From assembly GCA_031257315.1 (NCBI GenBank), contig JAIROW010000035.1, positions 1 to 61,279 of the forward strand: 61,279 nucleotides of DNA, read 5' to 3'. The notes beneath the pieces were generated by a model. That model was not told the origin of the DNA. It ran no database searches and was given only the letters and a program-made list of their open reading frames with translations. Below, in pieces: positions 31,976 to 33,239 of the stretch (positions within the stretch are counted from its first letter, which is position 1; every line of letters starts with the position of its first letter). The DNA is from Prevotellaceae bacterium (GTDB lineage Bacteria; Bacteroidota; Bacteroidia; Bacteroidales; UBA932). Position numbers and translations under genes: made by a program.

Positions 31976-32031
31976 CTCTCTCTCTCTCTCTCTCTCTCTC
32001 TCTCTCTCTCTCTCTCTCTCTCTCTCTCTCT
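31976..32031 (-). repeat. (GA)28 microsatellite (CT on plus strand) in the PUL-1 susC leader
   Basis: 56 nt of uninterrupted CT, read directly. Confidence 0.98.
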
Positions 32032-32210
32032 GGCAGAAATTGAACTGTCTGTAAAAATTGAACTGTACATACAAACCGTATTCAGTCTGTCAAAAGAGAC
32101 AGCTGTGAATACCGGTTTTTTACAACAATTTTTAACAATTCGACACATTTTTGTAATCTAATTTCATATTTTTTAACATGCAAAGATACAAATTTTTTTA
32201 ATAGAACAAA
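32032..32210 (-). promoter_or_regulatory. Promoter plus 5'-leader module of PUL-1 susC, a mirror copy of 33016-33178
   Basis: -7 box TAtcTTTG (reverse complement of 32181-32188) with TTTG 18 nt upstream. Aligns in reverse complement to the PUL-2 module. Confidence 0.65.
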
Positions 32211-32649
32211 TTTTTTAACAGAAAAATTTGGTTAATAAAATTTTTAATTCGGCATATTATATTGAAAACATGACAGTTATAAAATAGAATTTATGCAAAA
32301 ATTCAAATGTGATGTTTTAAAGCATAGGCGCAATTAATCGCGTCTCTGCGAAAAGCGTTGACCTGAGTATATGAAAATTTTGATTTCCAGTAATTTTTCC
32401 ATTTTTCTATAATAGAGTTTATGTAAAATTAAATATGCTATTGGAAAGCATATATCTGGCTTAAAGCCATAATTTTCATAACCGCCGGTCAACGACCGCC
32501 GGAAGAAACAGTGAGACGATAACGCTGCCTGTAAAGGCAGAACCCTGTGTATCAGAAAATGTTTGTCCGTATGTCAAACGACATACGGTTATGAAAATTC
32601 TGGCTTTCAGACAGTATATACTCAAATAAATTTACATAAACGCTAATGT

Positions 32650-32801
32650 ATGCGAATCAGGATTAAAAGTTCTGAAAGGACAGTAATTTTCATAACCGCA
32701 GGCAGTCGGTTATTGTCGTTTTTAGCCGCAGGCAACGCTATCGCTCGCCTGCGGTTATGAAAATTTTGTCCCGCAGGGACATTTTAACTCCTGATTCGCA
32801 T
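32650..32801. mobile_element. MITE/REP-like palindromic element, copy 1 (152 bp)
   Basis: Terminal inverted repeats ATGCGAATCAGGATTAAAAG / reverse complement ATGCGAATCAGGAGTTAAAATG. Nested 19-bp inverted repeat AATTTTCATAACCGCAGGC/GCCTGCGGTTATGAAAATT. Confidence 0.65.
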
Positions 32802-33015
32802 AAATTATGTATTTTAACGAGCTATTTTTATTTTATCTGTGAAAAGAACTTTTAATATTTTTTAATATTTTTTTGCAGATTTCAGATAAATGCTAAAAAT
32901 TTATTGTCTATTTTAATTTACTTATTTCTTCATCTTTTCTACTGTATATATCATATTATCAACATGATATGTAATTTAAAAAATTGCATCGTTTTTTTTA
33001 CAGTGAAAAAAAATC

Positions 33016-33178
33016 TTGATATTAAAAAAAAAATTTGTATTTTTGCACGTTAAAAATTGTGAAAATTGTAAGTTACAAAATGTATCGAAGTCTCAAATAT
33101 TGTTGCAAAAAAACGTTATTAACATGTCTGTTTTTTGACAGGTTAAATACATTTTGTACAGACAGTTTAATTTTTACC
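33016..33178 (+). promoter_or_regulatory. Promoter plus 5'-leader module of PUL-2 susC
   Basis: -7 box TAttTTTG at 33038-33045 with TTG 19 nt upstream. Conserved leader with an ATG at 33080. Confidence 0.65.
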
Positions 33179-33239
33179 AGAGAGAGAGAGAGAGAGAGAG
33201 AGAGAGAGAGAGAGAGAGAGAGAGAGAGAGAGAGAGAGA
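33179..33239 (+). repeat. (GA)30 microsatellite in the PUL-2 susC leader
   Basis: 61 nt of uninterrupted AG, read directly. Confidence 0.98.

Follow-up and report, generated by a model that had tools for sequence, protein, structure and literature searches.

Long GA repeats inside susC leader reading frames as a candidate phase switch in Bacteroidota

What do two long GA dinucleotide repeats do between a pair of divergent susC genes? The question is raised by a 61,279-nucleotide stretch of DNA from a Prevotellaceae bacterium (contig JAIROW010000035.1 of assembly GCA_031257315.1; the whole stretch is hereafter called the window), in which a 1568-nt gap containing both repeats separates the susC genes of two polysaccharide utilization loci (PULs). 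Control of PUL expression in Bacteroidota is ascribed to regulators that sense the substrate, to small RNAs and, in the case of certain SusC/SusD pairs, to DNA invertases. Here we find that each repeat lies within a small predicted open reading frame (ORF), the main feature of the locus and one that the first-pass annotation of this DNA had missed, and that the same arrangement recurs in other Bacteroidota. On balance we favour a slipped-strand phase switch, in which tract length modulo 3 would decide whether the ribosomes of the leader ORF reach susC.

Two perfect tracts in a mirror-image module

The susC genes and the promoters found in the gap are the following.

28599..31802, minus strand: left susC, 1067 amino acids (aa), leading susC-susD-DUF4959/5126/5000-DUF4998
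32181..32216, minus strand: left promoter, with -7 box TATCTTTG at 32181-32188 (reverse complement), an A/T-rich stretch upstream and a -33-like TTTG 18 nt upstream
33014..33045, plus strand: right promoter, with -7 box TATTTTTG at 33038-33045, an A-rich stretch upstream and cTTG 19 nt upstream
33371..36556, plus strand: right susC, 1061 aa, leading susC-susD-145 aa ORF

Tandem Repeats Finder delimited the first tract as a perfect (CT)28 at 31976-32031, which is (GA)28 in the sense of the left susC, and the second as a perfect (AG)30.5 at 33179-33239 on the plus strand. The same program detected no other dinucleotide array in the window, and a 12-nt GA probe gave no further match there (0.08 expected by chance). 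When the ~220-260 nt upstream of each tract were aligned in reverse complement (MAFFT, BLAST), they were 72-79% identical, with inverted-repeat arms at 32051-32151/33077-33177 (77% complementary) and 32162-32216/33010-33064 (78% complementary), and the identity dropped abruptly right at the outer (3′) edge of each tract. The left copy contains an 18-nt internal duplication (32037-32072). Both tracts are still perfect although their flanks have diverged by ~22-28%. Assemblies of read set SRR14710896 at k=31 terminate 2 nt and 6 nt outside the two tracts, which is the expected outcome for a real low-complexity tract and is uninformative on tract length.

Read against the -33/-7 consensus of Bacteroides promoters, the two boxes lie 141 and 157 nt ahead of their tracts, and no Bacteroidetes -7 box was found between tract and ATG in either window copy. 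The tracts are very probably transcribed, because each lies downstream of the only canonical promoter. The aligned arms and boxes support a promoter-plus-leader module that the two loci have in common. With only 25-32% identity between the two SusC proteins, and SusD proteins that are unrelated, no recent whole-locus duplication lies behind the shared module, and we ruled out that it is a relic of one. The description given by the first-pass annotation, with divergent susC/susD loci, two pure tracts at these coordinates, two -7 boxes, very probably transcribed repeats and a shared reverse-complement module judged by eye to be about three quarters identical (72-79% over ~220 nt by alignment), therefore stands. 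Of the shared block listed there as AAAAATTTGTATnTTTGCAyGTTAAAAA, the part AAATTTGTATnTTTGCAyGTTAAAAA has exactly two occurrences, against 0 expected.

Two other points of that annotation fared less well. It had suggested looking for whether the module sequence marks a susC regulon, and no further copy was found in the window, in 119 genome loci among the matches listed or in viral contigs; one metagenome pattern scan gave 0 matches and a second gave 56, about the chance number by a rough estimate, with 0 homologous by BLAST. It had also stated that no regulator adjoins the PULs. This is correct for hybrid two-component system (HTCS), SusR and extracytoplasmic function (ECF) sigma/anti-sigma genes, none of which is present around the PULs, but LytTR-type regulators close by (21209-22063 and 42595-45335) had been overlooked. 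Rfam 15 gave no match at the locus, either at gathering score or at E up to 10, and no family match in 18 related loci.

Leader reading frames across the tracts

The small ORFs and the hairpins associated with them are the following.

31792..32148, minus strand: left leader ORF, 118 codons, with ATG at 32148, 39 N-terminal codons, (Arg-Glu)18 and 60 codons
32076..32115, minus strand: stable hairpin in the N-terminal part of the left leader ORF (CCGGUAUUCA..CUGUC-N6-GACAG..UGAAUACGG)
31949..31963, minus strand: terminator-like hairpin CCGGAAAAATTCCGG then AATTTTTG, 13 nt past the left tract and within the long frame of the leader ORF
33080..33370, plus strand: right leader ORF, with ATG at 33080, 33 N-terminal codons, (Arg-Glu)20 and 44 codons

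On the left, the TAA stop of the leader ORF (31794-31792) lies 8 nt beyond the susC ATG (31802). On the right, the assembled ORF is fused to susC in the same frame (ATG at 33371), another frame closes with a TGA that overlaps this ATG (ATGA), and the third ends 10 nt past the tract. The post-tract stops of the three frames thus fall at +181/+62/+99 in the left copy and at fused/+132/+10 in the right copy. ATG and tract are separated by 99 nt on the right (ATG 33080) and by 117 nt on the left (ATG 32148), the latter being 99 nt plus the 18-nt duplication, which is in frame.

Comparison of the two window leader peptides gave 4 synonymous versus 14 non-synonymous codon differences, with substitutions distributed 9/6/8 over the codon positions; coding-type conservation of the peptide, or an excess at third positions, was not found between these copies. 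The ATG and the open frame are kept in both despite the unconserved peptide, from which we infer that the leader is translated and that translation itself, rather than the peptide product, would be what is maintained. The left hairpin folds with z = -2.6 for the leader and z = -4.4 for the 110 nt before the tract, and it has a partly compensated counterpart in the right copy. The tracts themselves are mostly unpaired in centroid folds, and a CU-rich partner arm was not seen in the window, although it was not systematically searched for. The tracts share with contingency loci an uninterrupted simple repeat, a 2-nt unit within an ATG-started ORF and a surface product (SusC/SusD here; SusC or secreted proteins in the related loci described below).

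Recurrence of promoter, ATG and tract in Bacteroidota

A scan with the probe (AG)16, restricted to one genome per species, yielded at least 119 loci, of which about 24 among the matches listed belong to Bacteroidota. These include cultured Dysgonomonas alginatilytica DSM 100214 (two loci: L113, ahead of susC, and L023), D. hofstadii DSM 104969 (L063), D. capnocytophagoides DSM 22835 (L119) and Porphyromonadaceae FC4; many others are metagenome-assembled genomes (MAGs) with names suggesting termite-gut samples. A full-length susC lies 195-369 nt downstream of a GA-sense tract in four loci (L046, L047, L098 and L113), SusC-type N-termini follow the tract in L053 and L115, and the remaining downstream genes encode secreted or regulatory proteins.

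The promoter recurs at a similar position, with a sense TAnnTTTG box 111-179 nt before the tract in ten of the scanned loci (L037, L049, L053, L057, L075, L098, L113, L115, L116 and L119); 11/14 boxes fall within that 80-nt band of a 400-nt search space (binomial ~4e-6). This promoter-to-tract geometry in unrelated loci supports the earlier view of a slippage-prone element attached to susC. The small ORF recurs as well. With ATG starts only, an open frame of at least 26 codons leads into the tract in 18/23 Bacteroidota loci, against 2.0 expected from dinucleotide shuffles, and 0/200,000 simulations reached 18 loci. The opposite strand scored in 5/19 loci, and the non-Bacteroidota loci of the same scan showed no enrichment (15 vs 9.3; 10 vs 10.7). 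Among loci with a GA-sense open frame, the distance from the upstream ATG to the tract is exactly 81 or 84 nt in nine and 90-123 nt in six further scanned loci, and the predicted products have the form M-(25-40 residues)-(Glu-Arg)n-short tail. No other class of simple sequence repeat (SSR) was found in 255 kb of these loci.

Two loci, L042 and L102, have the same layout in the CT sense. In L042 a (CT)n tract precedes susC, with a box 177 nt and an ATG 96 nt upstream; it encodes (Leu-Ser)n, and an alternative frame stays open for 208 nt and ends in ATGA at susC. Because this tract is in the CT sense, polypurine RNA or a strand-specific DNA structure is not the common principle. The GA sense is the commoner one in Bacteroidota (12 vs 5 overall; 8 vs 1 for susC including the window copies). 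A general purine-strand orientation rule was dropped, given this weak bias, the lack of any bias outside the phylum and the contradiction by L042.

Among orthologues of the left PUL, all those at 75-77% SusC identity, in which gene order is kept, have a long sense-strand tract upstream of susC.

L184/L185: (AG)6-GTGAT-(AG)24, 322 nt ahead of the susC ATG
L186: (AG)28.5, 445 nt ahead of the susC ATG
L183: (AG)18.5, 1479 nt ahead of the susC ATG; a box of its own lies ~153 nt upstream, and a strong terminator follows the tract

Apart from the tract itself, the leaders of these orthologues are unalignable with the window. Tract lengths in this PUL differ between species: 56 (window), 48 (+12), 57 and 37 nt. 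Two Dysgonomonas species likewise share a tract-bearing leader in which the tracts measure 58 vs 35 nt. More distant orthologues of the left susC (~65%) have no tract. On the right, susC orthologues L002-L006 (65-77% identity) have neither tract nor module, which rules out the tract as an ancestral feature of that gene.

Some observations on these loci stand by themselves. In L003 (9456-10001, GCA_025996865.1), and also in L002, a divergent susC pair has a different mirror-image promoter and leader (…TTAACAAAAAAATACTTTAnCTTTG…CGTTAAAAAGACGGATTA…TTGGTTTAATTTAAAGTAAAATTTATG) with no tract, and unrelated susC genes of the clade may often share promoter/leader cassettes. L047, L098 and L113 are three independent loci whose tracts are each exactly 65 nt long; the junction TATTTTATT(AG)n is common to L098, from a Tannerella MAG, and L113, from D. 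alginatilytica, whose leaders are otherwise unalignable. In L049 (5330-5470), ~7 tandem copies of TAATGATAGGAAATGYTTCAC are located after the GA tract and ahead of the downstream gene. Outside Bacteroidota, the scan found long (AG)n tracts in MAGs of Desulfovibrio, Spirochaetaceae and Planctomycetes, among others (L007-L125), many of them with termite-gut-style names, and some of the non-Bacteroidota assemblies are clearly contaminated, such as a 'Stappiaceae' MAG with at least 96 'chromosomes'.

Frames and structures downstream of the tracts

A post-tract frame is open as far as the downstream start codon in 9/20 loci, against 2.3 expected (P ~1e-5); for the susC loci the figures are 5/10 against 0.76. 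The stops of these frames, relative to the downstream ATG, are as follows.

Left window copy: stop at +8
Right window copy: in-frame fusion of one frame; stop of a second frame at +1 (ATGA overlap)
L115: stop at +7
L098: stops at -14 and +17
L046: stop at -8
L057: stop at +1
L049: stop at -14
L083 and L119: in-frame fusion, following open stretches of 392 and 514 nt

Judged from sequence, such stop positions near the downstream ATG are typical of coupled genes. The frame that reaches the downstream start is the assembled one in both window copies, L098 and L115, and lies one repeat unit away in L049, L057, L083 and L119. The other post-tract frames mostly end 0-60 nt past the tract.

Both flanks of the tract are more structured than shuffled sequences (mean z -1.2 before and -1.6 after). 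Strict intrinsic terminators follow the tract in ~6/23 loci and precede it in 1/23; a universal post-tract terminator was rejected, the strict definition applying to about a quarter of the loci. In L113, L183, L023 and L083, in which such a terminator follows the tract, exactly one frame enters or crosses it. Separately, an alternating GC-rich CGCGCG(Y)GCGC-type stretch or hairpin occurs 20-100 nt past the tract in many termite-gut-type loci (L037, L042, L047, L049, L053, L102, L115, L183 and L186). It is not found in the window copies and could be a pause or hairpin element or a Z-DNA-prone stretch.

A proposed frame-dependent switch

The observed promoter, ATG, open frames, their recurrence and the associated statistics allow us to propose how the tracts might act. 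Each tract would be the hypermutable part of a leader ORF devoted to switching. Dinucleotide repeats in ORFs behave in three phases, and Bacteroidota initiate translation without dependence on a Shine-Dalgarno sequence. We suggest that the canonical promoter fires ~140-160 nt upstream of the tract and that an ATG ~27-30 nt into the RNA opens a small frame, in which the repeat would be read as alternating Arg and Glu. Replication slippage would alter the tract by 2-nt units, and the downstream frame would cycle through the three phases. In one phase (two on the right), presumed to be ON, ribosomes would traverse the structured leader to the susC start codon, melting hairpins and terminator-like stems, protecting the RNA from premature termination and being delivered to the susC start by termination-reinitiation or overlap, so that anti-termination would be combined with translational coupling. 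In the other phases they would stop soon past the tract and leave a long folded untranslated leader. The outcome would be a heritable, reversible and stochastic switch, independent for each of the two PULs; as assembled, both window copies would be in a phase that reaches susC.

Several points weigh against this proposal. About half of the loci lack any frame that extends to the downstream start, and by themselves the window copies depart only mildly from expectation (P that a frame reaches the start 0.075 left and 0.31 right). A strict terminator is found in the left copy, and no hairpin ahead of the right susC qualifies as one. The fused frame on the right could equally be OFF, with the start codon occluded or a 97-residue extension placed before the signal peptide. 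With 28-30 units the tracts are longer than those of classical contingency loci, so that switching might be faster than is useful. All remaining assemblies of the window species break at the tracts and are silent on their length. Finally, the survey figures rest on the listed scan loci, selected for tracts of at least 32 nt; some of these are interrelated (the two window copies, L023/L119, L042/L102 and L075/L116), and the contigs of L053, L115 and L074 are cut short or may be chimeric.

More tentatively, the loci could represent a phylum-specific class of Bacteroidota switches, in which a portable cassette of promoter, leader ORF and (GA/CT)n gates PULs and surface-protein genes by frame-dependent coupling or anti-termination. 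The cassette type is common to two window susC genes that are only ~28% identical. With such a class, PUL phase variation that relies on a repeat and is independent of invertases would be described for the first time; a 2025 phase-variation review does not mention repeat switches of the leader-ORF or coupling type, and none was found in a targeted literature search. If the proposal is true, nutrient transporters, which are also likely phage receptors, would be turned ON and OFF stochastically and heritably without a dedicated enzyme, which would help to explain the control of SusC/D pairs that have no adjacent regulator. It would also mean that upstream-ORF translation matters in a phylum without Shine-Dalgarno-based initiation, and it would draw attention to a kind of locus at which short-read assemblies break and which gene callers pass over. 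The same architecture in cultured Dysgonomonas strains makes the proposed switch directly testable.

Alternative explanations

The alternative closest to the first-pass annotation is an untranslated 5′ leader, in which the tract would serve as a polypurine RNA platform for a protein or as H-DNA or R-loop-forming DNA, and its length would tune transcription or mRNA fate in a graded manner. The position of the tract downstream of the only canonical promoter and the preponderance of the GA sense in Bacteroidota are both compatible with it. R-loops formed at homopurine tracts of the non-template strand have been found to block transcription (PMC3561996, PMC5499740), and Haemophilus hmw1A is controlled by a transcribed repeat in its 5′ untranslated region (5′-UTR) (PMC12721329). 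However, it leaves unexplained the conserved upstream ATG at 81-117 nt from the tract, the 18/23 open frames against 2.0 and the post-tract frames without a stop over as much as 520 nt as far as the next start codon, and it has to accommodate the CT-sense architecture of L042 and L102 and the absence of any Rfam family match. With the tract in a conserved small ORF and a CT-sense version upstream of susC in L042, the untranslated platform or H-DNA envisaged in the annotation is not borne out, and we regard this alternative as unlikely. As a specific form of it, regulation of the RbpB or FopS type was rejected, because no GA-repeat motif is described in papers on RbpB, an RNA-binding protein of Bacteroides.

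A leader could also be translated without phase variation. In such an attenuation model a Glu/Arg-rich peptide would sense translation capacity or tRNA charging, or stall on nascent poly(Arg-Glu), and control a terminator or access to the susC start, the repeat being simply an efficient means of encoding the sensor. The observed layout would fit, in which a short leader ORF precedes hairpins or terminator-like stems and the peptide is otherwise unconstrained. Yet no particular amino acid can be required, because the (CT)n versions encode Leu-Ser; perfect purity over 33-114 nt is unneeded for Glu-Arg, for which synonymous codons would be expected, and the right copy yielded no clear pair of alternative terminator and antiterminator structures. 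This model seems to us quite unlikely.

It is improbable that the ORFs are genuine micro-protein genes, with charged repeats of ~40-120 aa and an incidental or merely co-expressed relation to susC. Each ORF is kept open behind its own promoter, many end 0-25 nt past the tract, and in L183 the ORF is a unit of its own, with a strong terminator, 1.3 kb ahead of susC. But amino-acid conservation is lacking even between the window copies, the GA and CT products are wholly different, and frames kept open as far as the following gene's start codon would have no explanation.

Equally hard to credit is a neutral by-product, that is, a lineage-specific tendency to expansion of GA microsatellites in long AT-rich susC leaders, in a locus where the promoter region was also duplicated locally in inverted orientation or underwent gene conversion. 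The module sequence is unique to this organism, the genome is rich in other intergenic tandem and palindromic repeats, and tracts are missing from the right susC orthologues and from distant left ones. Neutral expansion does not account for the absence of any other SSR type in 255 kb of loci or for promoter distances, ATG distances and open frames that are all far from chance, nor for the persistence of pure tracts in orthologues with unalignable leaders and in the window despite ~22-28% flank differences.

A mobile element, like a miniature inverted-repeat transposable element (MITE) or an insertion sequence, with ~240-bp terminal inverted repeats carrying outward promoters and inserted between the susC genes, would account for the inverted arms around a 0.8-kb core full of dispersed palindromic repeats and for the sharp end of identity at the outer tract edges, but it is very improbable given the lack of a second copy (window, genome loci, metagenome and viral scans), of a transposase and of a target-site duplication (the outer flanks CTCTTCTG and TTCCCTCA differ), the merely 72-79% identity of the arms and the single unpaired units of the same architecture elsewhere.

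Relation to known phase-variable and leader-controlled genes

The proposed switch combines elements of several known systems. In Helicobacter pylori, sabA, oipA and hopZ carry CT/AG repeats in the 5′ coding region of outer-membrane protein genes; intragenic dinucleotide-repeat contingency loci of this species are mentioned in PMC6891454. The likeness extends to a CT/AG tract in a reading frame, frame-changing slippage, an outer-membrane target and a three-phase cycle. Here, by contrast, the repeat lies in a separate upstream ORF whose product is seemingly irrelevant, mature SusC and its signal peptide would be unaltered, and the output would be coupling or anti-termination rather than truncation; the tracts are also 3-5 times longer and belong to another phylum.

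The Moraxella uspA2 (AGAT)n repeat is a comparable 5′-UTR repeat. Like it and the Haemophilus influenzae hmw1A repeat, the tracts described here form a simple repeat between a promoter and the start codon of a surface-protein gene, and they would be transcribed and act after transcription initiation. The hmw1A (ATCTTTC)n repeat is untranslated and acts in a graded manner through an RNA hairpin and RNase III (PMC12721329), whereas the conserved ATG and open frames in our loci point to a frame-dependent, three-state mechanism, and no pyrimidine-rich partner arm was seen in the window, where no systematic search for one was made.

Phase variation of SusC/SusD in Bacteroides is known only through invertases (PMC4747536; Nakayama-Imaohji 2009 on invertase-driven variation, as cited in PMC11868660). 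Stochastic, heritable ON/OFF expression of Bacteroidales SusC/SusD loci would be common to both systems, likely with the same bet-hedging over nutrients or phage receptors, but the Bacteroides system uses site-specific recombinases with invertible promoters or shufflons. No recombinase domain was found in the 28 window ORFs scanned, which extend to 51.3 kb. Each window promoter sits inside its own 240-nt arm and faces outward, so that inversion would change nothing.

In trpL, hisL, ermCL and tnaC, translation of a leader ORF determines downstream terminators or access to the start codon. The candidate switch resembles them in having a short ORF whose translation would set terminator formation or start accessibility; their input is physiological (charged tRNA, drug or tryptophan), whereas here it would be genetic, namely the repeat number. 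In Neisseria, the poly-G tract of hpuA affects hpuB by a polar effect. In both cases a frame change upstream would alter expression of the gene downstream, but hpuA encodes a functional protein, whereas the window ORFs appear to be dedicated to switching.

Other repeats in the window

The centre of the gap (~32280-32860) consists of nested palindromes (fold z = -11.3). A palindromic core, TTTTCATAACCGC / GCGGTTATGAAAA, and longer shared blocks, for example GCAGGCAACGCTATCGCTCGCCTGCGGTTATGAA..GTCCCGCAGGGACATTTTAACTCCTGATTCGCAT, recur at ~23020-23230 and 39000-39325, the distal ends of the two PULs, and at 46639. With copies at the gap centre and at both distal ends, each PUL is bracketed by them, and the repeat may be an insulator or bidirectional terminator like a repetitive extragenic palindromic (REP) or MITE sequence. 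The central 600 nt were rejected as part of the GA element, being a separate dispersed palindromic REP/MITE-like repeat.

Directly after the right PUL, at 38672-38946, a 22-nt unit (AAAAGCTCGCCTGCTTTTTTGN) is repeated 12.7 times; at this site orthologues have a ~270-aa protein and a Peptidase_M16 gene, and the window has only a 145-aa ORF (38092-38529). Intergenic heptamer repeats of the AATTGAC/CAATTGA type occur at 19959-20006, 22970-23011, 38528-38551 and 38640-38670. One array lies 104 nt upstream of a LiaF-like/LytTR operon, the others adjoin the palindromic repeat, and they could be further slippage-prone elements because their unit length is not divisible by 3. Tandem arrays of 22/44 nt around the palindrome GGGTTAACCC are present in two separate intergenic regions (7653-7779 and 23318-23467). 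At 6903-7210, a 33-nt (11-codon) tandem repeat of ~8.7 copies lies within an 841-aa ORF (4709-7234) without a Pfam match.

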